A stretch of DNA of 64,000 bases from Chiloscyllium plagiosum (lineage: Eukaryota). Every line of letters starts with the position of its first letter. Position 1 is the first letter of the stretch. The notes beneath the pieces were generated by a model. That model saw nothing but the letters and a program-made list of their open reading frames with translations, was not told where the DNA came from and did no database searches. Of the stretch, positions 3,205 through 60,783 are shown piece by piece. Made by a program: the position numbers and the translations under genes. The stretch lies in the NCBI RefSeq assembly GCF_004010195.1, contig NC_057751.1:8935611-8999610 (forward strand), given 5' to 3'.

Positions 3205-4255
3205 TAAATTCATTCATAGGGTATGGGCATTGTTGAGACTGCATTTAATGCCTTTCCCTTGTTATCCTTGAGCTGCCTTCTTGAGTCACTGCAGTCCATG
3301 TGCTGCAGGTAGACCACAATGTCCTTAGGGAGGAAATTCCAAGATTTTGACCCAACAACAGTGAAGGAAGAGCAATGTATGTCCAAGTAAGGATGGTGAG
3401 TGGCTTGGAGGGGAATTTGTCAGTGGTGGTGTGTGTACCCATGTATCTGGTGCTCTTGTCCTTCTAGGTGAAAGTGGTTGTGGAATTACAAGGTGCTGTC
3501 TGAGGATTTTTGGTGAATTTCTGCAGTACACTGAGCATCAGTAGTGGAAAGACTGGATGCTTATAGATATGGTGCCAATCAAGTAGGTGGCTTTGTCTGG
3601 GATGGGATTCAAAGGTAATAATCACACAACACCAGGTTATAGTCCAACAGGTTTTTTTGGAAGCATGGGCTTTTGGAGCGCCGCTCCTTCATCAGGAGGT
3701 TGTGGAGAATAAGACCATAATGGTCTTACCTCTCCGCAACCACCTGATGAAGGATCCACACTCCGAAACCTAGTGCTTCCAAATAAACTTGTTGGACTAT
3801 AACCTGGTGTTGTGTGATTATTAACTTTGTCCACCCCAGTCCAACACCGGCTCCTCCACATCTTGGATGGTGTTGAGCTCCTTTGGTGTTGTTGGAGCTA
3901 CGCTCATCAAGGCAAGTGGGGAGTGTTCCAACACAGTCCTGACTTGTGCCTTGTTCATGGTGGGCAGGCTTTAGGGAGTCAGAGGTGAGTTAGCTGCTGC
4001 AGTATTTCTTGTTTCTGATCTTCTCTTGGAGCCACTATTTTTATATGGTGAGTCCAGTTGAGTTTTGGGTCAAGAGCAAGACCTAGGATGATGATTGTGA
4101 TGGGGCAGCGGTTAGATTGTCTCTTGTTGGAGATCGCCATTGCCAGCATATGTCTGGTGCAAATGTTACTTACCACTTGTCAGCCTCAGCCTGGATATTT
4201 TCTATGTCTTGTTGCCTTTGGGCCCGGACTGGTTCAGTATCTGAGGAGTTGTGAA
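3205..4255 (-). mobile_element. CR1/L2-group (Crack-like) LINE 3' portion, interrupted by a PLE palindrome
   Basis: Minus-strand ORF remnants MYCRNSPKILRQHL (3325-3531) and LDPKLNWTHHIK (3979-4176); the same sequence family occurs at 19680, 33320, 54570 and 63320. Confidence 0.75.
3611..3862 (+). mobile_element. Penelope-like palindromic mini-element, family B, with hammerhead motif
   Basis: Imperfect inverted arms 3611-3718 / 3720-3828 (centre aagaccat-a-atggtctt) plus a one-sided tail to 3862. cac-CTGATGA-a-ggatccacactcc-GAAA-cctA-gtg at 3741-3775. Confidence 0.8.
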
Positions 4256-4607: not shown

Positions 4608-5287
4608 ACCAGTGCATCCACCTGGACACCCTGCGCTGGCCTATTACCTGTCCTCGACCTCTTCATTTCCAACTGCCGCCGGGATATTAACTGCCTCAAC
4701 CTGTCTACCCCCCTCCCCCACTCCAACCTCTCACCCTCACAATGCACAGCCCTCCAATCCCGACCTCACCATCAAGCCAGCAGATAAAGGGGGCACAGTG
4801 GTAGTCTGGCGCACTGACCTCTGCACTGCTGAAGCCAAACGCCAACTCGAGGACACCGCCTCCTCGACCATGACCCCACCCCCGCATCACCAAACCATCA
4901 TCTCCCAGACCATACAGAACCTCATCACCTCAGGAGATCTCCCATCCACAGCTTCCAACCTCATAGTCCGGGAACCCCGCACTGCCCAGTTCTACCTCCT
5001 TCCCAAGATCCACAACCCTGACCACCCTGGCCGACCTATTGTCTCAGCATGCTCCGGCCCCACTGAACTCATCCCTACCTACCTTGACACTGTTCTATCC
5101 CCCCTAGTCCAGGAACTCCCCACATACGTTCGAGACACCACCCACGCCCTCCACCTCCTCCAAGACTTCCGTTTCCCCAGCCCCCAAAAACAATTCCTGA
5201 TGAAGGGCTTTTGCCCGAAATGTCGATTTCGCTGCTCCTTGGATGCTGCCTGAACTGCTGTGCTCTTCCAGCACCACTAATCCAGAA
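4608..5287 (+). mobile_element. Internally deleted Penelope-like element, family A (RT fragment joined to 3' pLTR)
   Basis: ORF 4612-5253 contains PLE RT motifs IKPADKGG, FYLLPKIH, GRPIVS and LPTYVRDT. It is joined directly to CTGATGAAGGGCTTTTGCCCGAAATGTC (5197-5224). 10-bp TSD tcagttatcc at 4598-4607 and 5288-5297. Confidence 0.9.
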
Positions 5288-11698: not shown

Positions 11699-12020
11699 TT
11701 AGATTAGATTAGATTCCCTACAGTGTGGAAACAGGTCCTTCGGCCCAACCAGTCCATACTGACCCTCCGAAGAGTAACCCACCCAGACCCATTTCCCTCT
11801 GACTAATGCACCTAGCACTATGGGCAATTTAGCATGGCCAATTCACCTGACCTGCACATCTTTGGACTGTGGAAGGAAACCTGAGCACCCGGAGGAAACC
11901 CACACAGACACAGGGAGAATGTGCAAACTCCACACAGACAGTTGCCTGAGGCTGGAATCAAACCTGGGACCCTGGTGCTGTGAGGCAGCAGTGCTAACCA
12001 CTGAGCCACTGTGCTGCCCC
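11699..12020 (-). mobile_element. HE1-type V-SINE
   Basis: tRNA-like head (tggctcagtggttagc ... ggtttgattcc), V-domain tgtgtggagtttgcacattctcc, CR1-like tail ending (taatc)n. Confidence 0.92.
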
Positions 12021-15870: not shown

Positions 15871-16477
15871 TCATTTTCTTCTCAGCTAACAGGAGCTTGA
15901 GAGTCAAGATAATTTTGATCAACATTTTTAGGACAGCAACCTCTAACTTGTGGGGTGCCACAGGCTTCAGCACTCGGGCAATAATTATTTACCACATATC
16001 CAAAATGACGTTAAGTTAAAGTACTGTTGACAAGTTTGCGCTTGACAAAAACAGGGAGTACGCAAGTCATGAGGATGATACAAAAAGTCTACAGAGATAC
16101 AGACTGGCTAAGAGTGGATAAAGCCTTGGCAATTGCAATATAAAGTGGGAAAATTTGAGTATGCACTTTGCCAAGAAGAATAGAAGAGCTGAATATTACC
16201 TAAATGGGTAAAGACTGAAGAAAGCTGCAGCACAGATGAATTTGAGGGGTCCTCATGCATTAATCACAAGAAACTTGCATCCAAATTCAATAATAGGGAA
16301 GACAAATGCACTGCCAGCCTCAATTTTAAAGGGAATAGAGTAAAACATTAGGGTGATCTTACCAAACCATTACAGCCACTAATAAAAGCACATCTGGAAT
16401 ACAGTGAACAGTTTTCATTGCCTTATCTAAGGAAAGATAAACTGGCATTCGAGACAATGCAGAAAAGGTTCAGTAGG

Positions 16478-16660
16478 CAGAATAAAAACCAGAAGAACGG
16501 CAGATGCTGGAAGTCAGAACCAAAAATAGTTAATGCTGGAAAAGCTCAGGAGATCTGGCAGCATCTGAGGAAGGGTCATGTGAGCCAAAACATTAACTCC
16601 AATTTCTTTCCACAGATGCTGCCAAACATGCTAAGCTTTTCCAGCCATTGCTATTTTTGT
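16478..16660. mobile_element. Old Penelope-like palindromic mini-element, family D
   Basis: 9-bp TSD ttcagtagg (16469-16477 / 16661-16669). Inverted arms gctggaaaagct...ggcagcatctg / cagatgctgcc...agcttttccagc; decayed hammerhead CTGAGGAAGGGTC...CCAAAACATT at ~16565-16594. Confidence 0.7.
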
Positions 16661-16728
16661 TTCAGTAGGATGATCCTGGATTTGGAGGGAATTTGTTTTG
16701 GGGGGGGGGGGGTGTTTTATTTGAAGGG

Positions 16729-20889: not shown

Positions 20890-21590
20890 ACCACGGAAGG
20901 TCATGTTGATATAACCTTTTGTTTGCAGCACGAAGTCGAAGAGAAATATTTCTCTCTTTTCTGCTTTCCCCTCAGCCCCCAATCATGCATCACACACAAA
21001 AAAACCCCCAATTCTCACTCTTTCCCGTTTTCCCGTTCCCAGTGCTGTTCGAAAACAGCCCACTTTGCCCGTGGTCATTTAAACCAACCTTTCAGAACTC
21101 AACTCGGGGCAACACGAGCAACTTGTCTCTTGTTCGTCCGCGAGCAACGAATCGTTCAGGGGATCGGGTCTCCAGCATCCAAATTACTTTGCTTTTAGGA
21201 GGAGAAATCAGTCTCCATTGCGATACCTTTCGCGGCCGAACAGTTTGCTGATACTATATTGCAGGGTTTTTTTTGTGACCTGGGAAAAGCAAGAGTCACA
21301 ACGGCCCGTACTACTTTTAGGAGGAGAAATCAGTCTCCATTGCGATACCTTTCGCGGCCGAACAGTTTGCTGATACTATATTGCAGGGTTTTTTTTTGTG
21401 ACCTGGGAAAAGCAAGAGTCACAACGGCCCGTACTATGAGAACGAACGAATTGGCGTTAGGAATAGCCAACACCAATTCCAAAGTAACGGAAGGATGACA
21501 TGAAAAAGGAGTCGTGTTTTTTTTCTGACCACGGGAATGATTTCACCGTTTCGTTATTTATCTTCTCGCTGCGGTAGCGTGGTGGAAATT
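20890..21590. promoter_or_regulatory. Low-GC CpG-rich island; candidate promoter or 5'UTR region
   Basis: About 38 CpGs by hand count in 20881-21600, whereas flanking unique sequence is visibly CpG-depleted; no repeat family recognised here. Confidence 0.55.
21192..21436. repeat. Tandem duplication, 122/123-bp unit x2
   Basis: 21192-21313 and 21314-21436 are identical except for a T8 versus T9 run. Confidence 0.95.
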
Positions 21591-22730: not shown

Positions 22731-23140
22731 CTTGCAAACTGTACTTTGCTGATTTTTTTATGGATACAGTCTAGCCTGTTCAACCAACATGAGGCTAATC
22801 CCCCACCTATTTCAGGTTATTCGTCAAGTAAACCTTCTCTGAACTGTCTTGAAAGCATTTCCCTCTTGCCTTAAGTGAGATTACCAATACTGCTCAGACC
22901 ACTCCAGATGTTGTCTCACCAGTGCCTTGTATAATTGATTTGGAGGTGCCAAATCAATTGGACTGGTTAAAAAATCACAACACCAGGTTACAGTCCAACA
23001 GGTGCCCTTTGTGGGCACCTCATACCTTCAATGCTGTTGTGGTTCTGTTCGCCGAGCTGGGAATTTGTGGCAGATGTTTCATCCCCTGTCTTGGTGACAT
23101 CCTCAGTGCTTGGGAGCCTCCTGTGAAGCGCTTCTGTGAT

Positions 23141-23976
23141 NNNNNNNNNNNNNNNNNNNNNNNNNNNNNNNNNNNNNNNNNNNNNNNNNNNNNNNNNNNN
23201 NNNNNNNNNNNNNNNNNNNNNNNNNNNNNNNNNNNNNNNNNNNNNNNNNNNNNNNNNNNNNNNNNNNNNNNNNNNNNNNNNNNNNNNNNNNNNNNNNNNN
23301 NNNNNNNNNNNNNNNNNNNNNNNNNNNNNNNNNNNNNNNNNNNNNNNNNNNNNNNNNNNNNNNNNNNNNNNNNNNNNNNNNNNNNNNNNNNNNNNNNNNN
23401 NNNNNNNNNNNNNNNNNNNNNNNNNNNNNNNNNNNNNNNNNNNNNNNNNNNNNNNNNNNNNNNNNNNNNNNNNNNNNNNNNNNNNNNNNNNNNNNNNNNN
23501 NNNNNNNNNNNNNNNNNNNNNNNNNNNNNNNNNNNNNNNNNNNNNNNNNNNNNNNNNNNNNNNNNNNNNNNNNNNNNNNNNNNNNNNNNNNNNNNNNNNN
23601 NNNNNNNNNNNNNNNNNNNNNNNNNNNNNNNNNNNNNNNNNNNNNNNNNNNNNNNNNNNNNNNNNNNNNNNNNNNNNNNNNNNNNNNNNNNNNNNNNNNN
23701 NNNNNNNNNNNNNNNNNNNNNNNNNNNNNNNNNNNNNNNNNNNNNNNNNNNNNNNNNNNNNNNNNNNNNNNNNNNNNNNNNNNNNNNNNNNNNNNNNNNN
23801 NNNNNNNNNNNNNNNNNNNNNNNNNNNNNNNNNNNNNNNNNNNNNNNNNNNNNNNNNNNNNNNNNNNNNNNNNNNNNNNNNNNNNNNNNNNNNNNNNNNN
23901 NNNNNNNNNNNNNNNNNNNNNNNNNNNNNNNNNNNNNNNNNNNNNNNNNNNNNNNNNNNNNNNNNNNNNNNNNNNN
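23141..23976. other. Assembly gap
   Basis: N run inside the family C PLE. Confidence 1.
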
Positions 23977-24273
23977 AACTAGCCACGAAACGACACAACC
24001 AGCTATCCTTAGTAGCCACACACGCAGATGACAAGCAACATGAGTTTGACTGGGACAACACTACTTCGATAGGACAAGCCAAACAGAGAATTCCTCTAGG
24101 GAATTCCTAGAGGCATGGCACTCATCCACTGATTCAATCAACAAACATGTCGACCTGGACCCAATATACCGGCCACTGCAGCGGACAGCTGGAATGACAA
24201 CCGGAAGCGGCAGATTCAAACCACTACAAATGCCGGAGGAAGATCACAGAAGCGCTTCACAGGAGGCTCCCAA

Positions 24274-24313
24274 GCACTGAGGATGTCACCTAGACAGGGG
24301 ATGAAACATCTGC
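24274..24313 (+). ncRNA. Minimal hammerhead motif (family C), CpG-decayed
   Basis: gca-CTGAGGA-t-gtcacctagacaggggat-GAAACATC-tgc: stem I gca/tgc is intact and ACGT has become ACAT. A mirror copy lies on the minus strand at 23070-23109. Confidence 0.6.
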
Positions 24314-24773
24314 CACAAATTCCCAGCTCGGCGAACAGAACCACAACAACGAGCACCCGAGCTGCAAATCTTCACACAAACTTTGAACCTTCAATGCACT
24401 ATCTGGGCCAACTTGGCACCTATTGTTAAAGTTCACTTGAGAATGTAACTTTAACAAAATTCTGGAATTTACATATGAAAGAACTGAAACCAACATGGTC
24501 ATTCTCAAAGATGAGAGACTAATCAAACAATCCAAGTCTTTTTCAATATATAATTTCAGTTATATCACACTGTAAACTTTTGCCATAAATTCTGTGTCTT
24601 ACGATCTTATACTCTACAACCATCTGATGAAAGAGCAACACTCCAAATGCTATGCTTCAAAATAAACCTGTTGGACTATAACCTGGTGCTGCATGATTTT
24701 TAACTAAATATAATTGAGGCATAACCTCCCTATTTTTATTTTAGTTCATTTTGTGATAAATGATAGCATTCTC

Positions 24774-25410: not shown

Positions 25411-28400
25411 TTTTTTGATGAGGCATTCTGTTACCTTTTTGTTTAAATGACTTGTTAAAGTGAAGTGCAGAGTGTCAAGAATGGTTCTGTTTGAATTACA
25501 GGTTGGCTCTCTTTTTCTTTCTGATTTTCAGTTTCTCTGCACTACCAGGGAGCTTCGAAAGCTCAGATTTCACTCTCTCTTTACTAATCACATCTCATAA
25601 ACCATTATCTCAAGGCTCATTCTGTGTGGGATTGAAGAAATGCTCATCCAAACTAACAATTCTGCACAGTTTCATCTGGTGTTTATATGTAACAACATTT
25701 ATGAAAAATAAAGCATAACAAAATCAGGGTTCAGATGATTCCTATGTGGAATAATAGTTTCCGAGGTGTAAGATAAAATCAAGAATCTCAGTGGATTGTC
25801 CGCATTGCTTGTATGTAGATTAACAGAGTATAGGGAGGAAAGATTGAAGTTTAGTTGGACAGATTTGACTGTACTGATTTTCATTGGGTTCCTGAAGAAA
25901 TCTGTGATGTAAACTCCAAACAATACTCTTCTGACACTGAGCTCACAGACATCGCTGAGTACTCCTTCCACTCCACCCAGACATGAATCTTCCAATAAAT
26001 ATCTATTTTGTTTTCTGTTTCTCAGGCAATTTTAAAATTTATTCCCCAATGTTTAGCCCAAAACCCAATGGCTTTGTGGCTTTTATGTGGAACTTTATGA
26101 AATGCCTTTTTGGAAGTATTGGTCCATCATGTTATACAGTTTATCACAGATCCCCTTGAGTTTTTCACCTCCTCACAGAAATTGAGGAGATTGGTCAGGC
26201 TGAGCTCATTCTCCTCTTAGGCACCATGATGCTATTCAACCCTGTCAAAGAAGAAGAGCATGCAATCATTGACTCAGACCTTCACTGCTGAACAGCCCAC
26301 CAAAATTCACTCTCCAGATTAACACCAATCATTTTGAAGGTGGGAGTGAACTGTATCTCTTCAAGGATATTCCTTCAGGAGAGGAGCAAGGTTAATCACA
26401 GCAGTCAATGCTGAATTTCTATCTTAAATAGCCAAATGATTTACCATTCATGGCATTTTAAATAAAAGTGAATCTTACACAGCCCTCACAGTTTGTTTGA
26501 AGAGTTGCTGTAAAGAAGGTTTTGCATAGGGCGAAAGCTGGTCGAATTTAAAGCCATGTCTGACAGGATCTAAATGAATCCAACTTTGCCAAATTAGACT
26601 CTAACCAGAGTTACTGGCAACTGGAAGGCACTGTCAATAGCTTCACTTTCAGTATTTGAAGTTACAGATTTGAGAAAGCCAAGATTGTCCATAACTAAAC
26701 AGTGATTTATTTTAACACTCCGTGTTGTTGAATATCCAACCACCATTTACTCTCAAGATTCACACTGTAGAAATGGAGACTTCTTGGAGGATGCTGGGAA
26801 AGTCAGCAACTGTTGAACTGCCCCCAGCAAACATTGATATCTTCAGGAATGATGGAAAAGTACAAATGTTGAGTTGGATACTGATTGTCCAATGGAACCA
26901 GAATCCAAATCTCCCTTGATATTGTTACATGACTCCTCTAATTAGCTGTGTGTTCTCCTTCATTCCTGACAAGCAAGCTGTAAGTCTCTGAGCTCCCTGG
27001 CTCTCTGTGTTTAATGATGGAGAGCAACATGGAAGTGTCAGGTCTTCTAAAGGAAATTGATTGCAATTTTTTCAGATGTTAATCTCCATTGATCAATACT
27101 CTACCTTTAAGTTAAATTGGGATCTATTCTGCCTTATGTTTGCTTCTCAGAAAGGCTTCTGAACGGAAGGGTAAACTGCTGACCATAAAATGAAAGTGTC
27201 GCAGTTTTGCCTGTTTATCAAAATATAAAAGAAGGATAGAATGTTTAGTTTGACTTGGAATAGCAGCGAGCTGTAAAGAAAATCTCTCTTGTCAAGTCAT
27301 AATTTCGAGTTAGTGGTTTAAAACTGTATTTGTTAAACACTTAACCGTGTGTTACAGGGTTCATAAACCTAGAGAGTGACAGGCGTCTGTCTGTGCTTGT
27401 CAATGTGCTGCCAATCATGGTGCCTTATCACCAATGGACAGCAGAGGTCAGTGTACATGTCAGAGACTGGTGCCATGGTTAATGCAGGCCACTGCTACTG
27501 CATAACTTATTCTGTCACCCAGAATTAACCCATTCCTGTCTTTCCTATGTTCAGAAAGGAGAAGTGGTGTTTATGTTGTGCTTTTAAAACATTAAAAACA
27601 CTTTAAAACCAATTCAGTACTTTTGAAGTTAAGGCATTTCTTTCAATTTAGGAAACACAGTAATTTGCACACAGCAAGCTCCCACAAACAGCACTGTGAA
27701 AATAACTAGACAATCTGTTTTTCACTGATATTATGGAGAAATGCCCCCCCACCCCCAGTTCCCACCCAACTATTGATTCTAACTTGTCCCTGATCCTGAC
27801 CAGACAGGGAAACCCCCAAAAATGCCTCCTATCATCTGTCTTTGTTTGGAGTGAAGACAGGCAATTTCTATGAACTATGACAGATTATGTGACATTGCAA
27901 AATTCAAGTCAGCCCAATCCAAGACTTTGAATTTCAGAGATTCTGGTTTACATAAATTTTGCTTTTGGAGCCAATTCTCCCTGTGTTCCTTACTCAACGG
28001 TACTAGCATTCACGACTGAAGGCTGGCCAGCCAAACCTGTTCAAATGCCGCATTAGTATTGTCCAGTGCCATCATGTAACCATCTTCTGCACAGAGCAAT
28101 TAGTCTACCACACAACCTCTAGTGCAAATTCCTAAATGACAAATATTCTCTCTTAATGTTGGTCCTGATGGTGCCTCAAGCTTGGCAGAGTGGAGCCCAA
28201 TACTTATCTTTTTTGCTTGCTTTGCAAGTAAAAGGTAAAAAGTTGTGGTTTTCAAAAGGTCACAAACCAGTCCCCAGAGTCCTCTTCCACACTTGAGGGG
28301 CAATGCAGAAAGGAAGGTGGTCAATCCTGTCAACCTCTTTGACCAGCCACTCCGAACCTCCTATGCCAGAAATGTGTGCTCCAATGTCTCAGTGCACACA

Positions 28401-28532: not shown

Positions 28533-28849
28533 TTTGGAGTTTACATCACAGATTTCTTCAGGAACCCAGTGAAAACAGTACAGTCAAAACTGTCCAACTA
28601 AACTTCAATCTTTCCTCCCTATACTCTGTTAATCTACATACAAGCAATTAGAGGAGTCATGTAACAATATCAAGGGAGATTTGGATTCTGGTTCCATTGG
28701 ACAATCAGTATCCAACTCAACATTTGTACTTTTCCATCATTCCTGAAGATATCAATGTTTGTTGGGGGCAGTTCGACAGTTGCTGACTTTCCCAGCATCC
28801 TCCAAGAAGTCCCCATTTCTACAGTGTGAATCTTGAGAGTAAATGGTGG
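28533..28849 (-). repeat. Composite inverted copy of 25804-25920 and 26740-26943
   Basis: 28533-28648 is the reverse complement of 25804-25920 (about 3 differences); 28646-28849 is the reverse complement of 26740-26943 (about 3 differences). The pieces join through a 3-bp microhomology (ATT/AAT). Confidence 0.95.
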
Positions 28850-31440: not shown

Positions 31441-32029
31441 AAGATAATGGGAAATTTTATCACCCAAAGCATTGTCGGGCTTTCTGCCTGAAAAGGTGGT
31501 AGAGCTAGAAACTCTTATCACATTTCGCAGATTAGGATCTAAGGTCTGGAAAATGGGTTGACATTCAATCACTATGAATACATGCGTTGAATGTCCTGTT
31601 TCTGTGATGTAAATTTCTATGATATATATTAAAACTGACATGACTCAGGCAGGTTAACCCAAAGTCAGAGGTAAGAGCTCAGAGCAACACATTAATCTGA
31701 AAGGATTCTTCAGCCACAGAATGGCTCGACACAGCATAAAGAACTTTGTAGAGATAGTAAAGCTGAAACATAACTTCTTTTCATATCCACAAAGTTAACC
31801 AGACTAGAGGTAGTACAGGTTTAGGGTAATGCAGAGAATGTTTCACAGAGATTCCATTGAGTATTTATTTGAAATGGTGGAACATGTTGACAGAAAGGTG
31901 AGACCAGACACTGGATCAATTTCAGAAATAGCGAGATGAGAAGCCATAAAGTTGAGATTCTTGATCTTGTGAACTGTAGGGCCTCTTTTTGAGTGCTTCA
32001 CACTCAATTAAGGCCCGGAGAGGTTTTCA

Positions 32030-32731
32030 GAGTTGAAAAATGCGGTGCTGGAAAAACACAGCAGGCCAGGCCGCGTGCAAGGAGCAGGTGAATCGACATT
32101 TCGGGCATAAGCCCTTCTTCAGGAATGAGGCTGGTGTGCCAAGCGGGCTGAGATAAAAGGTAGGGGGGAGGGGATTTTGGGGAGGGGCGCTGGGAATACG
32201 ATAGGTGGAAGGAGGTGAGGGTGATAGGCCGGAGAGGGGGTGGTGGTGGAGAGGTTACCACTGCCTCCGACATTATAGTCCCACAACACCGCACCACCCG
32301 TTTCTACCTCCTACCCAAAATCCACAAATCCATCTGCCCCGGCTGACCCATTGTCTCAGCCTGCTCCTGCCCCACCGAACTCATCTCNNNNNNNNNNNNN
32401 NNNNNNNNNNNNNNNNNNNGCCTTATCTTCACCATGGACATCCAGTCCCTATACACCTCCATCCCCCATCACAAAGGCCTTAAAGCCTTTCGCTTCTTCC
32501 CTTCCCGCCGACCCAAGAACTCCCCACCTACATTTGGGGTACCACCCAACACCCTCCAGCTCCACCCTACCTTCTATCTCAGCCCGCTTGGCACACCAGC
32601 CTCATTTCTGAAGAAGGGCTTATGCCCGAAACATCGATTCTCCTGCTCCTCGCATGCTGCCTGGCCTGCTGTGTTTTTCCAGTACCACATTTTTCAACTC
32701 TGGTACTCCAGCATCTGCAGTCCTCAATTTC
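32030..32731 (+). mobile_element. Penelope-like element, family A, inverted pLTRs with RT remnants
   Basis: ~16-bp TSD cccggaga[g/a]gttttca (32014-32029 / 32732-32747). RT pieces FYLLPKIHK and MDIQSLYTSIPH; hammerhead motifs at 32095-32122 (-) and 32608-32635 (+). N gap at 32388-32419. Confidence 0.9.
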
Positions 32732-33319
32732 CCCGGAGAAGTTTTCAATTCCATATCGTTTTCTCAGACAAATGACACTGAACCAGTGTCAGCAGTCCAA
32801 CAATCTATATTTAGAATGGGTTAACTGCACTGAATACATAGCCTTGTTGTGGTATCAGGTTGTCAAAGCTAATGCACCATGATTAGCACAGTGCCAAGGA
32901 GAGGTAAACAGGTAACCCACCTGATCTCTGAAAGGAAATTTCAGATAATAAACACAATTCTTAAATGGGCATAGATTAAAAAAAAGCCATCCAGTCCCCT
33001 TCTTCTGTTCTCCCTCCCAACACACCATCATTTTCTGAAAGTTATGCATTTAAGAGTAAACGTCCATTGTAGCAAGCAGCTCTCTCCGCCAAATGGCCTC
33101 CCTCATGTATGTGAGTAACTATAAGACAAGAGTTGCACAGAGCTGAGCTAAATTCTACCTTCATGTGACAACTACTCTCCAGTCCTTGACAGTGGTTGGG
33201 ATCACAAACCTTCACAGATATTTCCTCTTCTGTCAGAGGAGCTGATAACAACTGTAATAGTGGAGTGACTTGATAGAGATATTTAAAACATACGAAGGGT
33301 TTAATTTTTCAGACATTGG

Positions 33320-34719: not shown

Positions 34720-35049
34720 TAGAAAAGTTCCACAAAGAGTAAACACATGACTGAGCAATCTTTATATAGTTAAGTTCAGAACAGGTCATGAAGAAATATT
34801 AATCAATAAAATGAATGGATAAGATATAAAAGTGTACTTTGTAATTGCTTAAAAGCTGAAAACAGCTTTAGAGGAAAATAGAAGTTGGCTATTCAGCCCT
34901 GTTAGAAAAGTTCCACAAAGAGTAAACACATGACTGAGCAATCTTTATATAGTTAAGTTCAGAACAGGTCATGAAGAAATATTAATCAATAAAATGAATG
35001 GATAAGATACAAAAGTGTACTTTGTAATTGCTTAAAAGCTGAAAACAGC
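34720..35049. repeat. 147-bp direct duplication with templated spacer
   Basis: 34720-34866 and 34903-35049 differ by one substitution. The spacer contains agaagttggctattcagccctgtta (34880-34904), identical to 35108-35132. Confidence 0.95.
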
Positions 35050-35685: not shown

Positions 35686-36214
35686 GCCCATTGTATATGT
35701 TGCACCAGTCAATGAGATCAAGGCAGCTCTGGTAATTTTCAACACCACTTTCCTGCCCTTTCCCCAGACCCTTCATTTCCTAAGTGAACAAAAATCTGAC
35801 TGTATAAACCTTGACTGTACTGAACGATCCAGCCTCAATAGCCCCCTGTGGTGAAGAATTTCACGGATTACCTACCGTCTGAGAAACAAAACTCTTCCTC
35901 ATCTCTGCCTTAAATTAATGGCCCCAGACTTGTGATTATGCCTTTTGGTCCTCGATTCCAGTTCTAGGGAAAGAAATCTCTCAGCACCAACCTAGTTAAG
36001 CCCCCAAGAAACTTTTACATTTCTTTAATAGTACCTCTCAGTCTTCTGAACTCCAGTGAGTATCAGCCCAAACTACTCAATGACTCCTCAAAAGACAGTC
36101 CCTCCATACCTGGGATCAAACCAATGAACTGTATTCCAGCTGTAGCCTGTTTGGTGCCTTGTGTGGTTTTAGTAAGACTTCCCTATTTTTATGCTCCATT
36201 CCCTTTGAAATAAA

Positions 36215-36423
36215 AGCTGAAAAATGCATTGCTGGAAAAGCGCAGCAGGTCAGGCAGCATCCAAGGAGCAAGAGAATCGACGTTTCGGGCATAAGCCTGA
36301 AGAAGGGCTTATGCCCGAAACGTCGATTCTCTTGCTCCTTGGATGCTGCCTGACCTGCTGCGCTTTTCCAGCAATGCATTTTTCAGCTCTGATCTCCAGC
36401 ACCTGCAGTCCTCACTTTCTCCT
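36215..36423 (+). mobile_element. Penelope-like palindromic mini-element, family A (perfect 83-bp arms)
   Basis: 36215-36297 is the exact reverse complement of 36306-36388, with an 8-nt loop and one-sided tail ctgatctccagcacctgcagtcctcactttctcct. Direct repeat cctttgaaataaaagc at 36202-36217 / 36421-36436, partly overlapping the element ends. Confidence 0.95.
36297..36324 (+). ncRNA. Minimal hammerhead core (intact core, weak stem I)
   Basis: CTGAAGA-A-GGGC-ttat-GCCC-GAAACGTC: conserved CUGAnGA and GAAA, 4-bp stem II, palindromic ACGU, GUC cleavage triplet. Confidence 0.7.
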
Positions 36424-37527
36424 TTGAAATAAAAGCCAAGATTGCATTTGCCTTCCCTATTACCTGTTGGACTTGTATGCTCGCTTTTTTGTGATTTACG
36501 CACGCCGAATCCCAAAACCCTCTGTGCTGCAGCTTTCTACAGTCTTTCTCTATTTTAATAATATTCAACTCCTCTTCTTCCTGCCAAAATGCATAACCTC
36601 ACATTTTCCCACATTATATTTCATCTGCTAAGTTTTTGCCCACACACTTAACCTGTCTCTATCCTTCTGTAGACTTCTTGTGACATCCTTACTACTTGCC
36701 TTCCCACTTATTTTTGTGTCAACCACAAATTGATGAGAGTATATTCATTTCTGTCTTCCAAGTCATTTGAATCATAAATAATACTGGGCCCAGCACTGAT
36801 ACCTATGGTAATTCACTAGTTAGTGGTTGCCAACTGGAAAATGCCCCACTTATCCCTCTGCCTTCCAGCAACTGGCCAATTCACTATCCATGGTAGTAAA
36901 TTACTTTAACTGATTCCCCTTTATCTATCCTGTTTGTTAGTTTCTCAAAGAATTCTAATGAATCTGTCAGATTTCCCCTTCATTAAGCCATGCTAACTTT
37001 TCTTGATTATATGATGTATTTCTAAATGTTCTGCTGTACCATCTTTGGAATAGATTCTAAAATTTTCTCAATTACATATGTTAAGCTAACTGGCAACATT
37101 TACCTGTTCTCTGTCTGTCTTCCTTGTTGAATATGGGTGTAACACAATTGCTCTGGGACTCTACCAGAATTTGAGGATTCTTGAAAGATTATTACCAGTA
37201 TATTCCACTATCTTTGCAGCTACTTTCTTTCATATCCTAGTTTGCAACCCATGCAGTCCTGGAGGTCTATTGGCCTTTAACCCCATAATTTCTCCAATAC
37301 TTTATCTCAAGAGATAGTTACTGTATTTATTTTCTGCCTCAATTCTCCGATACAACCCTCACTCCTTAATTCATTAATATTTTATGAATGCTATTTATGT
37401 CTTCTACTGTGATAATTAATGCAGAGTATTTATTCAACTCCACTGCCAGTTCCTGATTCCAATTATTCTTTCCCAAAACTCACCCTCTACGTGTCCGACA
37501 TTCATTTTGACCTCTCTCTTCCCTGGT

Positions 37528-37846
37528 GGGTGGCACGGTGGCACAGTGGTTAGCACTGCTGCCTCACAGCGCCTGAGACCCGGGTTCAATTCCCACCTCA
37601 GGCGACTGACTGTGTGGAGTTTGCACGTTCTCCCTGTGTCTGCGTGGGTTTCCTCCGGGTGCTCCGGTTTCCTCCCACAGTCCAAAGATGTGCAGGTCAG
37701 GTGAATTGGCCATGCTAAATTGTCCGTAGTGTTAGGTAAGGGGTAAATGTAGGGGTATGGGTGGGTTGCGCTTCGGCGGGTCGGTGTGGACTTGTTGGGC
37801 CGAAGGGCCTGTTTCCACACTGTAATGTAATCTAATCTAATCTAAT
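37528..37846 (+). mobile_element. HE1-type V-SINE, young
   Basis: A box tggcacagtgg (37539), B box ggttcaattcc (37583), V domain, CR1-like tail gggccgaagggcctgtttccacactgta and (taatc)n; many CpGs retained. Confidence 0.95.
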
Positions 37847-46448: not shown

Positions 46449-46669
46449 ACTGTCTAAAAAGGGCACCGGAACACCCACAGAATCGTGCTTAAACGTGAGT
46501 TGATGCAATTACAAATTTAATCACAGAATAGCCATTTAGCTCAACAGGATCATACTCACATTTATGCTCCATAAGAACTTCTGTGTGTCCCTGCACATTG
46601 AAACATGTCAATATAATCCTTTCACTCTCATCTGTTGATTCAGTTTTCCCCTAATTGGCTCTCTCCTGC

Positions 46670-46854
46670 GGAGAAAGTGAGGACTCCAGATGCTGGAGTT
46701 CAGAGTCAAAAAATGTGGTCAGGCAGCATCCGACGAGCTGGAAAGTCATGAGCCCTTCATCACCACCTCATTCCTGATAAAGCGCTCATGACTTTCCTGC
46801 TCCCCAGATGCTGCCTGACCGGCTATGCTTTTCCGGCACCACATTTTTCAACTC
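46670..46854 (-). mobile_element. Penelope-like palindromic mini-element, family A, ribozyme core deleted
   Basis: 14-bp TSD tggctct[c/t]tcctgc (46656-46669 / 46855-46868); tail on the left; both arms read gctcatgactttcc and lack CCCGAAACGTC. Confidence 0.85.
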
Positions 46855-49524
46855 TGGCTCTTTCCTGCCCGCATCAATGACTTCTGGTACTAATAAGTTG
46901 CATGTTTCAACCACATTGTGGACAAAGAAATTTTGTCTGAATTCCCTTACAGATTATTAATGATCACTTTATGTTTATGGCCAAAGGTTTTGGTCTCCTT
47001 CATCTGGAAACACCTTCTTCACATCACCCTTTTCTGAATTTCAATGACAATGTTTAGGCTACTCAATTTTCTCTTCCAGAGAAAAGAGATCTAACTTGTT
47101 CAATCTTTCCTGATTGGTACGACCTCGCACTTGTGCCACCTTGCTGGGAAATCTTTATGGCACCTTCATGAGAGCTTCCACGCACTTTTTTCTAATTAGA
47201 GAACTTGATAAGGAATGGAGCACAAAATAGAAAGGAAAAATTAAATTCCAACACATGTTTGGAAGAATGAGATCCAAAATCCACATTCTGTTGATGATTT
47301 ATGAGAAAAATATCAAATAATTCAATGTGATTTAATAGGATTCTACAGCACAACTCCACACATGTTTTTGATAGAGGTGGAATGGAATTAACACCTTTTA
47401 ATCTCCTTACAAAGTGATTCTGTTGTTACATGGAACTTGACTGGCAGTAAACAGAATTCCGAATTGAAACAGATTGGTACCATCTGGCGTTCCTGTCTCT
47501 GGATATTAGACCAGGACAACAAAGCCCCAAGCGGGAAACAGGAGCCTGTGACAAACAAAATGAAGGTTGCTCCAAGGTGAGGGGAGTCCTTGAGGAAGAA
47601 ATTGTAAATTTGTATTCAAAGCCTGTTGGTAAGGAGAAGAGACCAAACAGATTTTCAAAAATTAAAACAAACATAATTCCCTACACAAATTTGTCAAAAT
47701 CTGTTATGTTAAATGCCACAATTCATGACTTTCTGCTGCTTTTTATGGAGATTTTTTTCCCTTCTCAGCTGACAGGTACAGCCGACAAAGTGCAGGTACA
47801 CAACACTACCTCATCGAAGTAATCACTCTCCACTTAGACAGTCAACAACAACATGCTACTCAACTAAGGGTGGCATCACAACTATTCACACCTTGCTTTC
47901 ACATGCACACACAAAAACCCATTCATTCTTTCCAACATTGGCAGGTACAGAGATTTCCTCAACTTCAGTGCACTGAGGTCCATCATCATGATCAGGGGTC
48001 TTAGTTTTTAAGAGGTCACCTTGTAAGATCTTATCATTTTTTACCTTTGGAAGCTTTGTTTTGGTTTTCAGAGGTTCCATTTACATTTTCACTAGCTCAT
48101 ATAAGAACATCTCACGTATTTTTTTTAGGGTTTTCTTTTTGAAGTAGATAAGATGGCACAATTACCAATGGCTATTCACATGAAAAAAAGTGACTCTTTC
48201 GCTTGAAATCTATAAATAAGATATTTTGTTTTCCATTATAATTAAATGTTCCATACTACGTGTCTAAACTTAAAATTCTCAATGTTTATCACAAGGTAAC
48301 TTATTGGAAGCAAAAGGATGCATTTTAAGCATTATTATCAAATTTTACTGCCCAAACGCCATGAGAGATTTGTTGCTGACACAAAACAGGTTGTAAATGG
48401 AGAAGGTAAATGTCTGATTATAGTCAAGTCCAGAACCCTCAATGTTTACGCTCTCTCATGGTTATATGTCAAAAATAACAGACTAATCAAAGAAAATATT
48501 TACTTGAAACATTCATAAGAGTTGTACATCAAAAATCAACATAGCACAAGGCGGAATGACAAAGTTGGCCAGAAATTCCATGTTTCCCTCATTCCATTGA
48601 AACTTGGAGCAAGAACTCAGTATCTCATTCCCTTAAGTTTATGAAACAAAATTCTTGCAAAATTCAAGATACCATCTGTAATTAACTCTCAAAACAGCAA
48701 AGTGAGCACTATAACATTCAAATATGCAAAATACCTTCTTTTTACCTCAACAATCATGACATTTTACTTTCGAGTCAGGAACAACAGTGTCTCCTAACCC
48801 AACCGAACCTAACCTATCCAGCACGAATTCAGATCCATCCCACCCTATCATTGCTCAAGCAGGCTGTGAGTGATGGATCCCCCAGGCCTGCCCTGAATTT
48901 GTTAAACTTTCTTTCCTGCTGCAGGACTGGCCAGAATGGACTCTTCCAATTAAAGGTTTCCTTCCTCCTGCCATTGCTGCTCCTTCAGTCAGAAGCAAGA
49001 AGAACCAGAGAGAGACACAGAGAGAGAGAGAACCTGCAATTAATGTGACTGAAACAGTCAGCATAAAAGAGATGAGATCTCTGATTGGAGAAGCAGCTCC
49101 TCAAGGATCATGTCTCCCCCACGTACAGGACTACCTTTCTTTGATTAGTGACCCCATGATTGACATTACCCGAGCAGTTTGAACGTTCAGGGTGATTTTG
49201 CTTATTTCACCTGCCACTCCAATTGAGGTTAAATGCTGGTTCTATCTGAGGTCTGCTCATCGCACAGATTAAACCCTCCATGCCTATGTGTTTAATTTTG
49301 AACTGAAAAATGTCAGAAATCAGAGTGGCCATTGATCTGAGCCTGCTCCAACATATAGTAAGATCATACCTGACCTGTATGCAGTACACTATTCAAAAGT
49401 GATCTCACTAAGGCCCTGCTGAAATAAGACATCTTTAATCTTCTACTCAAAACTCTGAGCAAGGAAGGGCAACATAGCATTTGTTAAATTTATCCAGTCA
49501 AACTTTGGTCAGCTTTGAATCTCT

Positions 49525-49749
49525 GCTGAATAATGTGTTGCTGGAAAAGCGCAGCAGGTCAGGCAGCATCCAAGGAGCAGGAGAGTCGACGTTTCGGGCA
49601 TAAGCCCTTCTTCAGGAAGCCTGAAGAAGAGCTTATGCCCGAAACGTCGATTCTCCTGCTCCTTGTGTGCTGCCTGACCTGCTGCGCTTTTCCAGCAACA
49701 CATTTTTCAGCTCTGATCTCCAGCATCTTCAGTCCTCACTTTCTCCTAG
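49525..49749 (+). mobile_element. Penelope-like palindromic mini-element, family A
   Basis: About 90-bp inverted arms meeting at cag-gaagc-ctg, plus a one-sided tail; direct repeat ttgaatctctgctg at 49515-49528 / 49750-49763. Confidence 0.93.
49588..49615 (-). ncRNA. Minimal hammerhead core, intact
   Basis: Minus strand ttc-CTGAAGA-A-GGGC-ttat-GCCC-GAAACGTC-ga; the plus-strand twin at 49621-49648 has a stem II mismatch. Confidence 0.7.
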
Positions 49750-50352
49750 TTGAATCTCTGCTGTTCAACAATTGTTTAACCTCCGACCCTGCAGTCAGTA
49801 GGTTACACGGTGTTTTGACTTTCCATCTGTCACACAGTGATGATCTAATTGACAGAATCATTGATGACTTCACGCTTGCACAGTATTGATCTTGGAAGTC
49901 CCCACTGCAGCTGTCACATATACATAATAATCTGTCTGTGGTCCCTGACAAAATTCTTTCAAGACATTACAGTTGTTCTCATTTCCGTTCTGTGGTCAAT
50001 GCGATCAAAACATGCTGGAGGCTGACGGTGAATAAGTGTAATTAAATCAGTCAGTCAGGAAAGGTACTGCTTTCACAGTGTAAGGTACTGGTTTCTGATA
50101 CTGATCCACCCATGACATGACAGAGAGCATTTGGAATCTCTGATTAAAGATCTGGGACTGATGGCGCAGGCACACATGTCAATTGACAAAGTGCTTTTCG
50201 AAATTGATACATACTTCTCCTAAGCTGGCAGTAGAAAATCAGTGCAAATCCTGCTTGAAATGTCTCACGACAAATCATGGTAATGATCTCTTATAGTTTT
50301 AATCAATGAGAACTGTCATGTCTCATGCTTGCTGTGCTGACCTGAGTACCAT

Positions 50353-50557
50353 GATATGGAGGTGCCGGTGTTAGACTGGGGTGTACTAAGTTAAAAACCA
50401 CCCAACACTAGATTATCGTCCAACAGATTTATTTGGAAGTACTAACTTTCAGAGCACTGCTCCTTCATCAGGTAGCTAGTCAGCTGCCTGACAAAGAAAG
50501 CTAGTACTGCTAAATAAACCTATTGGACTATAACCTGGTGTTTTGTGATTTTAGATT
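50353..50557 (-). mobile_element. Penelope-like palindromic mini-element, family B
   Basis: TSD tgagtaccat / tgagtactgt (50343-50352 / 50558-50567; differences fit CpG decay of tgagtaccgt). Minus-strand tac-CTGATGAAGGAGCAGTGCTCTGAAAGTTA-gta; plus-arm GAAAGCTAGT at 50496. Confidence 0.8.
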
Positions 50558-51374
50558 TGAGTACTGTTCAACTAGGGAAGGTGCCTACAACTGTAAAATA
50601 GCCAGCTGCTTCATGGGACACATACTGGTGGAATTTTTTAATGAGGTTGTGAAGCAGTTGCTTAGATTTGACATTACTCCAGCCCTCTGTCAATTCTATC
50701 ATCTTTTGATGTCATGCTCAAGCTGATGTGTCATTCTCCGCAGACAGCCTGCTCCTGATTCTGAGCCACATTTGTAACACAGCTGGAAATCTCCCTAAGT
50801 TTTGATTCCAAACTTTATTTATATGGTTGATTCAGAATGGTTGTTGTGGCTTTCCAATTCTGGCTAATATTCTGACAGCCCAGAAGGAAATGAATCAGTA
50901 AAATTGGTGAAAGAGATAACATGGTCTGACTTTTATGCTTCAAACGGAGGTCTGGTTCATCCAGTATTTTCATTTCCAAGTGTTACTGTTTGTTTGCTGT
51001 TTCTCCATCTGGGATGCTTGCAGACTGATTTACAATTGGTTTGGAAATGCCTGAACTCATCCTGGCTTGTTGAATGTAAAGTTATTCTTGGCTATGTTGA
51101 TACGAAGTGGTTAATAGGACGTTTCTGAGACGTATGATGAAGTATTTCAGAATGAATTACAAAGTGGTATTTTAAAAAGCACTAATTCAAGTAATTATTG
51201 CTTTTAGTATGGATTTCTCTCACACACCATCCCCCATTTCCAGTATTCATTTCACACTGTTACAAGAACAAAACATCCCAAAACACTTCACAGGAGCATT
51301 GTTCAACAAAATAGGTAATTTGTTAGAATCTACAATGACTGCAGTGCCACCTCATGTTTTTCAAGATAGGTTTG

Positions 51375-57328: not shown

Positions 57329-59125
57329 TAACAGGACTGCAGAGCTTAGATCTGATCTTTGTGGGATCACTGACTGGGTGCAGATTCTGTTGCTTGCCAT
57401 GCAAGTGTAACAGCTTCGTAGGTCGACACCTTATTTTCAGACATGTCTGCTGCTGCTCAATGAATGATCTCCTGCTGTCTTCAGTGAGCTAATGTCAGCC
57501 TTTTGACTTGATGGAAATGGAAGACGAGGGGATGTCGAGTCATGAAGTTACAGATTGAGAATGAATACAATTCTGCAACTGCTGATGGCCCAAAGTGCCC
57601 ATGGATGCTCAGTTTTGAGTTGCTGGATAACTTTAAAACCCATTTAGCACAATGGTAATTCTACACAACACAATGGGGGGTATCTTCAAACGAAAGATGG
57701 AACTTCACCTCCATAATGTCTGTGCAGTGGTCACTCAATTGATGCTGTCCCAGACAGATGCATCTGCGACAGGTAGGCTGAGGAGGATGAGTTCACTGAT
57801 GCTTTTCTCTCTGGCTAGTTCTTTCCCCATCTGCCACAGATCAAGTCTATCAACTCTTCTCTTAAGGACTCAACCAGCTCAGTCAGCACCAAGGCACTCT
57901 AAGTGCTTGAGATCGAAGTCACCCACCAGAGGGGTCGGAGTGAGTCTGGAACGCACTGCCTGGAAGGGTGGTTGAGGCAGGAAACCGCACAACCTTCAAA
58001 AAGTTCTCGGATGAGTATCTGAAATGGCATAACATTCAAGGCTCTGGGCCTAGTGCAGAAAATTGGGACAAGTGCAAGTCGTGTATTTTTGGCAGTGCAG
58101 ATTCTGAACTGAATATTCTATGAGGTGCACTCTGTGCTATTGGTAACATCAGCAATTTTGCAATTGATGTCCAATATGGAGGTGGTCTGATTTATCTGCT
58201 CAGGGTGGGTGGAAACATTAGCTCTGCTTTCTCTCCACAAATGCTACAGACTTGTTTCTCCACAAATTTCTGTTTTTGATACTTGACATGCCTATGGGAA
58301 CAGATCTTCCAATTTTGGCATCAGTCTGCAGATGTTAAGAAGTGGAACTTTGCAGGGTCAACATTTTTAGGAATGGAATTCTCAACAGTGAGATGATCTA
58401 AGGTAGAACAGGCAATGATGGTTAAAAAAGAACAGCAGATGTTGAACATCTGAAACAAAAACATAAATTGCTGGAGAAATTCAGCGGGTCTAGTAGCATC
58501 TGTGGAAATAAAGTACAGTTAGTATGCTGAGTCCATTATGACCTCACCCAGAATTTTTGTTTTGGAAACCAGGGAATTACTTAATCTTAGTGAGATCTCA
58601 CAATGTTGATGCAGGCAAACTGTTCATCGTGTTAATGGTTCACATAGGAGGGCACACTCATTCACAATCAGACAAAGGGGTTTGGAGGGAGATTAAGGTG
58701 AAGTCAGGTGGAACATGGTCCCCAGAGAAGGAAGGGGATTGTAGAGTTAATCAGTAGGGGAAGTTGTTAAAGCAGATTATATTAACAGGTTTTAAGGGGA
58801 CAAGACAGCTTTCAGTGTGAGTTAGCAGCTGACAGATATGGTGAGAAGTTGAGTCAGTGGGATCTGTCAAACAGGGTACGTTATACCTGTTTGGATTCTC
58901 AATCAATCTTATGTCAATCTATATGGATAATACATGTTAGCTGATGTACTATACAACTAAGACCCATCAGTTTGATGTAAAAACAACAGTTTGTATACAG
59001 GTTATATTGAATAGAGGGACTTCCTACAGTTTCCTTCTCTCTTTTCACCTTTCCTCACTGCATGTCACTTACTGTTTCTAGCCTTTGGGACCATAATTGT
59101 TCATTGCCTGCTGGCATTTTAACTA

Positions 59126-59406
59126 AGATGAGATTACTTACAGTATGGAAACAGGCCCTTTGGCCCAACACGTCCATACCGATCTGCCGAAGCGCAACCA
59201 TTCCCCTACACCTAACATTCCGGGCAATTTAGCATGGCCAATTCACCTAACCTGCACATTTTTGGCCGGTGGGAGGAAACCAGAGCAAACCCACACAGAC
59301 ACGGGGAGAATATGCAAACTCCACACAGACAGTCGCTGGAGGCGGGAATTAAACCTGGGTCTCTGACCCTACGAGGCCGCAGTGCTAACCACTGTGCCAC
59401 CGTGCC
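59126..59406 (-). mobile_element. HE1-type V-SINE
   Basis: Reverse-strand tRNA head, V domain and CR1-like tail. Confidence 0.92.
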
Positions 59407-59805: not shown

Positions 59806-60496
59806 AGAGATGGAGAAGTCACTGGCAAGGCCAGAATTTAAAACCAGTTCTTAACTGACCTTGTTGAACTACAGCAGTCCTTTGCTGCAGGTATACCCAA
59901 ACTACTGCTTGGAAGCAAACTCCAGTGTTTTGACCCAGGGACACTGAGGGAACAGTTATCTATTTCCAAGTCAGATAGTATGTGACTTTGGTGGGAAGTT
60001 GGAGGTGGCACTGTTCTCATATATTTTCTGTCTTTGTCTTGCTTGGTGATGACTTTTGATAGTTTGTGAGATACCACAGAAGAAACCTGCAGCACATGGC
60101 CTGCTTCCCAACAGATACCAGTGCAGAATGAGGAACAAATTTGGCTGAGCATCAAAACTGTCTTTATAAATTAGACCAGCAAGAAATACAGCACTCTTCT
60201 GAAAAAAACAATTTATATCAAAAAGATTCAGCTTCTCCCTCTCTCCACCTTTTTATCCTACTTCCCCACAATATCTTTGATGTTGATAAGTAGTCAGAAC
60301 TTTGATCGTTGGATTGGTAGAGGTGTTGGTTTAAAAGTGCCCATAATCTAGATTTGAGATGCCCATGATGTTAGCAAATTGGACTGTGCAGATTGAGCTA
60401 TGGGAAGCTAGGGAAGACTTCTTTTCATTCCTGTGGGGTATCACCTGGTTTCGGGTGAAGCAGTTTTCTGAGTTATTGCAACCATTAAGTAAGAAA

Positions 60497-60783
60497 AGAT
60501 TAGATTACTTACAGTGTGGAAACAGGCCCTTCAGCCCAACAAATCCACACCGACCCTCTGAAGAGTAACCCACCCAGACCCCTACACCTAACACTATGGG
60601 CAATTCACCTAACGTGAACATCTTTGAACTGTGGGAGAGAACCAGAACACCCAGAGAAAACCCACGCAGGCACAGGGAGAATGTGCAAACTCCACACGGA
60701 CAGTTGCCCGAGGTAGGAATTGAACCTGGGGTTTGTGGAGTTGTGAGGCAGCAGTGCTAACCACTGTGCCACCGTGTCACCCC
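60497..60783 (-). mobile_element. HE1-type V-SINE
   Basis: Same architecture as 11699-12020 with small internal deletions. Confidence 0.92.

Follow-up and report, generated by a model that had tools for sequence, protein, structure and literature searches.

The palindrome at 36202-36436 and other copies in the window

The stretch of the Chiloscyllium plagiosum genome analysed here, referred to as the window, is 64,000 nt long and carries at 36202-36436 a short palindrome whose arms form an exact 83-nt inverted pair (36215-36297 / 36306-36388), in agreement with the perfect arms reported in the first-pass annotation. The inverted arm, which has no tail, lies on the minus strand at 36215-36297 and corresponds to about +9 to +91 of a repeat family designated A, C3 of the CUGA core being position 0. 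The direct arm, as aligned (36296-36388, plus strand), starts 1 nt before a hammerhead core, and the two arms overlap by 2 nt at their junction. A one-sided tail of 34-37 nt follows (36389-36422, plus strand), reaching 36422 and corresponding to the stretch between two likely reverse-transcription start sites by comparison with the available text of PMC11167929. An exact 16-nt repeat flanks the copy at 36202 and 36421; the last 3 nt of its left copy (36202-36217) are common to the arm, and the first 2 nt of its right copy (36421-36436) to the tail. The insertion lies in an old and abundant host repeat, and the flanking word is present once in paralogous copies of this repeat (e.g. L331, L339 and L340); since it is single at these paralogous empty sites, the 16-nt repeat is a true target-site duplication (TSD). 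Its CC and AGC ends are common to the element, so the spacing of the nicks may be 11-16 nt. At the same base of another copy of this host repeat lies another family A palindrome, centred differently (L002:1428-1740), which suggests a target hot spot.

A minimal type I hammerhead motif is predicted, following the descriptor, at 36297-36328 (plus strand), with the core at 36297-36303, helix II at 36305-36316, the GAAA at 36317-36320 and the predicted cut at 36324/36325. The core is kept on one arm only, and this copy fails the hammerhead descriptor because its helix I is truncated. The predicted RNA fold of the palindrome is one long hairpin (z = -25) in which the motif is sequestered; given the loss of helix I and this modelled folding, the focal copy is unlikely to cleave.

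The six insertions previously listed as sharing one design (3611, 16478, 36215, 46670, 49525 and 50353), hereafter stubs, are all head-to-head pairs with a tail on one side, and fall into three families, A, B and C, rather than the four or so proposed. Family A comprises the focal copy, that at 49515-49763 (plus strand; arms 49525-49618 and 49620-49746; 14-nt TSD) and an older subfamily at 46656-46868 (minus strand, tail on the left), where a 12-nt deletion removes GAAA from both arms. Family C, represented by the copy at 16469-16669 (minus strand, tail on the left), has 80% identity to A over 71 nt. Family B, with copies at 3610-3865 (plus strand; arms 3610-3706 and 3733-3865 around a 26-nt centre) and 50343-50564 (minus strand, tail on the left), shows no nucleotide match to A or C. 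The TSDs attributed to these insertions are clear at 36215 (16 nt), 49525 (14 nt), 46670 (14 nt, one mismatch) and 16478 (9 nt, exact), and weak at 3611, where the duplication is uncertain (10 nt, one mismatch), and at 50353 (7 nt). A longer family A insertion (32027-32734, plus strand) presents the same design, with an inverted tail-less arm, reverse transcriptase (RT) fragments, a direct tailed arm and a 16-nt TSD with one mismatch.

Other repeats were observed in the window. A further Penelope-like element (PLE) at 23035-24348 has 106-nt inverted repeats (99% identical), a separate CUGANGA core (24277) and a frame presumably resembling a Poseidon-type endonuclease end; it looks nested in a long family B insertion spanning 22967-24705, the middle of which is hidden by an N gap. 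Two inverted-repeat pairs of 97% identity (26740-26953 / 28636-28849 and 25804-25880 / 28572-28648) surround non-coding DNA holding no frame of at least 90 aa, and reflect an unexplained rearrangement or an assembly artefact. Near-identical local direct duplications of 83 nt (21192-21274 / 21314-21396) and 147 nt (34720-34866 / 34903-35049) are also present, as is a dispersed repeat of about 300 nt, which we take to be SINE-like (11701-12019, 37528-37825, 59121-59406 and 60492-60776).

Relationship to Penelope-like elements and to minimal hammerheads

The palindromes are almost certainly ORF-less insertions of endonuclease-bearing PLEs. As the first-pass annotation had assumed, the arms are homologous to PLE pseudo-LTRs (pLTRs), arm and tail being continuous with an element encoding RT and a GIY-YIG endonuclease. 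Together they constitute the first ~126 nt, or 5' leader, of an RT + GIY-YIG PLE with a minimal hammerhead. Family A copies extending past the arm lead into RT and GIY-YIG frames (RVT_1, E=5e-9; GIY-YIG, E=2e-4), and two pieces of the window (4966-5273 and 32027-32734) hold PLE coding frames. Among 30 loci fetched with an N-terminal query, arm and tail run straight into the 5' end of the ORF in 11; four of these begin at -9 to +7 (counted from the first C of the CUGA core, giving values one higher than the other position figures), four are partial tandems, two begin inside the unit and one is cut by N. In family A, arm and tail also follow the stop codon of the ORF, which lies inside the hammerhead core. 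A frame starting from an ATG in loop II extends as far as the ORF in L274 and is broken in other copies. L274 is a full form with an adjacent inverted 5'-truncated copy and a one-sided tail. Judging from these sequences, the family A arm and tail are the pLTR of a partial tandem, in which the unit's 5' start is repeated at the 3' side, an organisation also seen in the anole element of PMC11167929 (available sections); this arrangement is established for family A only.

RT or endonuclease sequences lie within 1.5 kb of 48 of the 106 long arms of family A, and GIY-YIG frames are linked to 4 of 12 long copies in family C. The link is weaker for family B, with RT or endonuclease near 1 of 29 long arms (tblastn); in L167 the arm is preceded by a GIY-YIG-like frame, and in L181 by the end of such a frame (E=4e-4 to the A endonuclease). 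A PDB sequence search with the RT fragment gave no match. The linker before the GIY-YIG domain is of the C-x4-C-x2-C form in family A and degenerate in B. A Zn-finger-like C-x2-5-C-x2-C linker is tied to the Neptune clade in the accessible part of PMC8557442, and by this motif the families look Neptune-like. A pyrimidine run ending in AG, similar to a 3' splice site, was also observed shortly before the core in A, B and C (roughly at -25, -5 and -12; e.g. 32560-32607 in the window); in Drosophila virilis an intron ends at helix I, according to the available text of PMC4209133.

In the accessible parts of PMC8557442 and PMC3846280, the insertion unit of endonuclease-positive (EN+) PLEs includes an adjacent inverted 5'-truncated pLTR and a 30-40 bp tail. 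The shark copies share with this unit the head-to-head inverted pLTR, one-sided tail, TSD, partial tandems, RT with C-terminal GIY-YIG and solo pLTRs. They differ in that the commonest product is ORF-less, about 200 bp long and present at ~64 per Mb, in their TSDs of 14-16 nt against 8-10 nt in the rotifer elements of these papers, and in that solo pLTRs have their own TSDs, whereas the rotifer ones are attributed there to recombination or deletion. PAc, a Poseidon element of Anolis (PMC11167929, available sections), is alike in its tail between two fixed ends, its use of both target strands, the ribozyme at the front of the unit and the ATG in helix II/loop II. Unlike PAc, families A and B have a C-x4-C-x2-C-type, Neptune-like linker, and the sections available mention neither gene-less palindromes nor a run-off product.

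The architecture had been suspected to be poorly described. The inverted pLTR, the tail, the TSD and the ribozyme have each been described in PLEs before, and the design is that of the PLE insertion unit at its shortest. Our search of the openly accessible literature, for the most part at the level of entry listings, retrieved no account of gene-less palindromic PLE stubs, of their occurrence as a mass product or of twin priming in PLEs; a term search of the accessible text of PMC5753468, PMC4316615 and PMC12602865 added nothing on stubs. Such stubs may be annotated in Repbase or Dfam.

The minimal type I hammerhead noticed in the window is found as a predicted motif in all three families. The descriptor gave 67 hits in 1.16 Mb, 58 of them within mapped arms, and none in three shuffled sets. 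In families A and B, more than 90% of arms can pair in helix II; position 3 of helix I in family B is C-G in 25, U-A in 11 and U-G in 10 of 52, a compensatory change, and helix I of family A has a U-U mismatch. Core, helix II, palindromic helix III and helix I are thus all present at the level of the family, the focal copy itself failing. An Rfam scan of the window gave no hammerhead hit and only sub-threshold hairpin or miRNA matches. The minimal hammerheads of metazoan PLEs, as far as the available text of PMC4209133 describes them, have a CUGANGA core, an extra nucleotide before helix II, a G-C first pair, a palindromic 2-nt helix III and a short helix I, and are mostly single, some being paired on opposite strands 100-700 bp apart. 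The stubs share these core and helix features and differ in that their opposite-strand pairs abut, usually truncating the predicted motif. A ribozyme-centred functional design, as initially proposed, is not supported, since the arms meet at the leading edge of the motif, ~25-35 nt away from the predicted cut (+27/+28 in family A), since solo stubs and full-length elements begin there too, and since many stubs have lost the motif. The hammerhead is likely a passenger marking the start of the unit. A retrozyme was rejected because the arms are inverted, not in direct tandem, and the ends are not at the predicted cut site.

Abundance, ends and arm concordance of the stubs

A census covered 120 of 160 planned 10-kb stretches, placed on a fixed grid over contigs among C1-C27; they total 1,159,478 called bases, and elements within 70 bases of a stretch edge were left out. 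It contained 74 mini palindromes (A 48, B 13, C 13), with one tail in 68, none called in 5 and two in 1, together with 140 solo stubs and 54 longer copies (51 single arms and 3 palindromes). No head-to-head pair between families occurred in these 1.16 Mb, and the 2 tail-to-tail neighbours were each of different families. The density is ~64 mini palindromes per Mb, or ~1.2% of bases in the sampled DNA, which would represent roughly 230,000 palindromes in the 3.56-Gb genome if the large contigs are typical. A centre-blind query gave the same continuum from stubs to ORF-bearing copies.

The outer ends of family A are confined to two places, +125 and roughly +84 to +95, as expected from two start sites bounding the tail in vitro. 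Inner ends lie at -12 to +12 in 103 of 154 palindrome arms and at -30 to -13 in only 2, with the same sharp upstream edge in palindromes and solo stubs (median +2 vs +4, p=0.66); for single arms that are longer or older, alignment to a single reference may have shortened the inner ends, an effect from which palindrome arms are free because they abut. Palindrome arms are no shorter than solo stubs. A minor group of 7 among 139 young A arms ends near the predicted cut (+26 to +28). Contig depth of run X9, the kind of which is not on record, drops ~20-fold upstream of the core, in agreement with the census, of which it is not independent. One RNA run, dominated by read-through of dispersed copies, showed no pile-up of starts or ends and a second gave no reads, so that neither speaks to the RNA start.

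The centre is made anew at each insertion, as proposed in the first-pass annotation: there are 51 distinct junctions among 69 young copies, recurring junctions (one of them common to 6 copies) lie on different source haplotypes, and loss at the centre does not increase with arm divergence (rho 0.02, n=63), for which reason progressive centre deletion was rejected. Between the inner ends of the two arms of a copy there is a weak correlation (rho 0.25, p=0.048). Of 77 copies, which present 71 distinct end pairs, 38 have the longer reach on the tail-less arm and 21 on the tailed arm, and in 18 both end within 2 nt. Most junctions show 1-11 nt of microhomology, with overlap in 39 of 67 copies. A TSD was detected in 62 of 70 young copies against 3 of 70 controls; its length ranges from 9 to 20 nt and is 14-16 nt in 38 copies. 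Target flank logos are dyad-symmetric (r=0.58, p=0.001, n=52). Solo stubs with their own TSD were found among tailed (11/24) and tail-less (5/13) forms alike.

The arms of a copy usually share their source haplotype, source alleles being mirrored on both arms in 47 cases and on one arm in 14, and arm divergence is 2.6% within copies vs 5.2% between copies; allele counts in the fetched loci are biased, as rare words are preferred by the genome search. The 14 one-arm alleles compare with 6.4 expected, and three copies (L008, L013 and L018) are discordant for G/T at +44, with a known source allele on the tail-less arm only. This excess points to two templates, in a suggestive manner only. A query aimed at enriching one source allele gave mostly copies already in the set, and an apparent discordant excess at +78/+79 was discarded, being an artefact of this rare-word preference. 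Some apparently private changes are mirrored, namely the 12-nt deletion at 46670 (its exact 18-mer is found once in the genome), a 3-nt deletion in L117 and a change at +35 in the focal copy; they fit one arm copied from the other, the same RNA serving for both arms, or an uncommon defective source. Singleton substitutions are rarely mirrored (A 2/47, B 2/50, C 3/59), and post-insertion homogenisation of the arms was rejected on this ground. L006 and L010 (about 1500-1720) were seen to share a junction, a haplotype and one arm-specific change at different targets, possibly representing a rare re-mobilised whole palindrome or chance.

Possible routes of insertion and their significance

We lean, with moderate confidence, towards a route in which two short cDNAs are made from the front end of the element, one at a nick in each target strand. 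The element protein would nick the two strands about 14 nt apart and each nick would prime on the front ~126 nt of the element RNA, one cDNA presumably starting at the outer site, which includes the tail, and the other at the inner site, which excludes it. Both would then likely run off the RNA 5' end near -10, at the front edge of the ribozyme and not at its cut site, and would probably be trimmed before being joined head to head by microhomology; we infer both the RNA start and the run-off step. A single productive cDNA would leave a solo stub, a start in a read-through copy at the RNA 3' end would give the longer insertions, and the stubs themselves are likely dead ends. In the accessible text of PMC11167929, both strands are cut and extended by the protein of the anole PLE, which is predicted to form dimers; synthesis begins internally at two sites bounding the tail, ribozyme cleavage not being needed. 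That in vitro work concerns a Poseidon-clade element and the stub families look Neptune-like. The concordance of the arms, the mirrored private changes and the weak correlation of the inner ends count against the route. During L1 twin priming, both target nicks prime cDNAs that meet by microhomology, and two different parts of one RNA are copied; the stubs would be alike in the joining of two nick-primed cDNAs and differ in that both arms cover the same sequence.

The first-pass annotation favoured instead a fold-back at each insertion. In such a route a single target-primed cDNA would snap back, or prime itself on an antisense template as Arkhipova et al. proposed, and be copied as far as the inner site, its centre being trimmed during repair. 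The high arm concordance (47 mirrored alleles vs 14), the mirrored private deletions at 46670 and L117 and the microhomology at most junctions all speak for it, as does the argument for self-priming made from head-to-head palindromes by Arkhipova et al. 2013 (PMC3846280, accessible part). However, a snap-back copy cannot hold sequence upstream of the tailed arm, yet 38 of 77 tail-less arms do, so that an additional asymmetric deletion would be needed, despite which palindrome arms are no shorter than solo stubs. Moreover, tail-less solo stubs with 14-15 nt TSDs show that synthesis can start at the inner end independently, and singleton substitutions are mirrored in only 2/47. As the arms lack a nested arrangement and each arm type is also found singly with a TSD, fold-back is not supported as it was stated, and we regard it as unlikely, two cDNAs being favoured by the same upstream sequence and tail-less solo stubs.

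Two cDNAs could also be primed while their inner ends arise from RT stalling or ribozyme cleavage instead of the RNA 5' start. The stop zone does lie at the hammerhead in all three families and the minor group of 7/139 young A arms ends near the predicted cut, but most ends are 20-35 nt upstream of the cut, past helix II, before which a stall would be expected; the upstream sequence differs among A, B and C with the edge unchanged, and full-length elements start at this same edge, making such an origin quite improbable. A self-amplifying non-autonomous element, such as a DNA MITE or else a palindromic RNA that is retroposed in its entirety from a few masters, seems to us more improbable still and is largely refuted. 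MITEs are short, hairpin-shaped, numerous and flanked by TSDs, and have fixed centres, symmetric TIRs and short TSDs of fixed length. The stubs resemble them in size, shape, number and flanking duplication, some junctions recur, one in 6 copies, and the L006/L010 pair shares junction, haplotype and arm-specific variant. Against this, 51 junctions occur in 69 copies, pairs with the same junction share a haplotype no more often than the others (10/36 vs 538/2310), and have arm-specific variants in common in 1/36 vs 24/2310. The earlier view that these are not MITEs is therefore sustained by the absence of a fixed centre or symmetric ends (71 end pairs in 77 copies, a one-sided tail), the long, variable TSDs of 9-20 nt and the continuum to longer, ORF-bearing copies.

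More tentatively, and slightly short of even confidence, the two-cDNA route may be extended to vertebrate PLEs: their dominant retrotransposition product could be a 'strong-stop'-like twin cDNA, a protein dimer priming both nicks on the 5' leader of (sometimes two different) RNAs, followed by run-off and joining, leaving some 200,000 hairpins or about 1% of the genome. Self-priming was proposed in 2013 (PMC3846280) and the in vitro work of 2024 left later steps unvalidated (PMC11167929), as far as the accessible text of both shows. The single locus is ordinary, whereas stubs en masse form a good record of how PLEs likely insert, since with hundreds of thousands of minimal insertions the fold-back and two-cDNA models become separable by counting alone. 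Repeat finders would class these hairpin stubs, about 1% of the genome, as MITEs, and miRNA finders would take them for precursors. If the twin-cDNA reading is true, the RNA start, both priming sites and the geometry of the nicks in vivo can be read from the stubs, and self-priming would not be needed to account for the inverted pLTR and the tail found in all EN+ PLEs.
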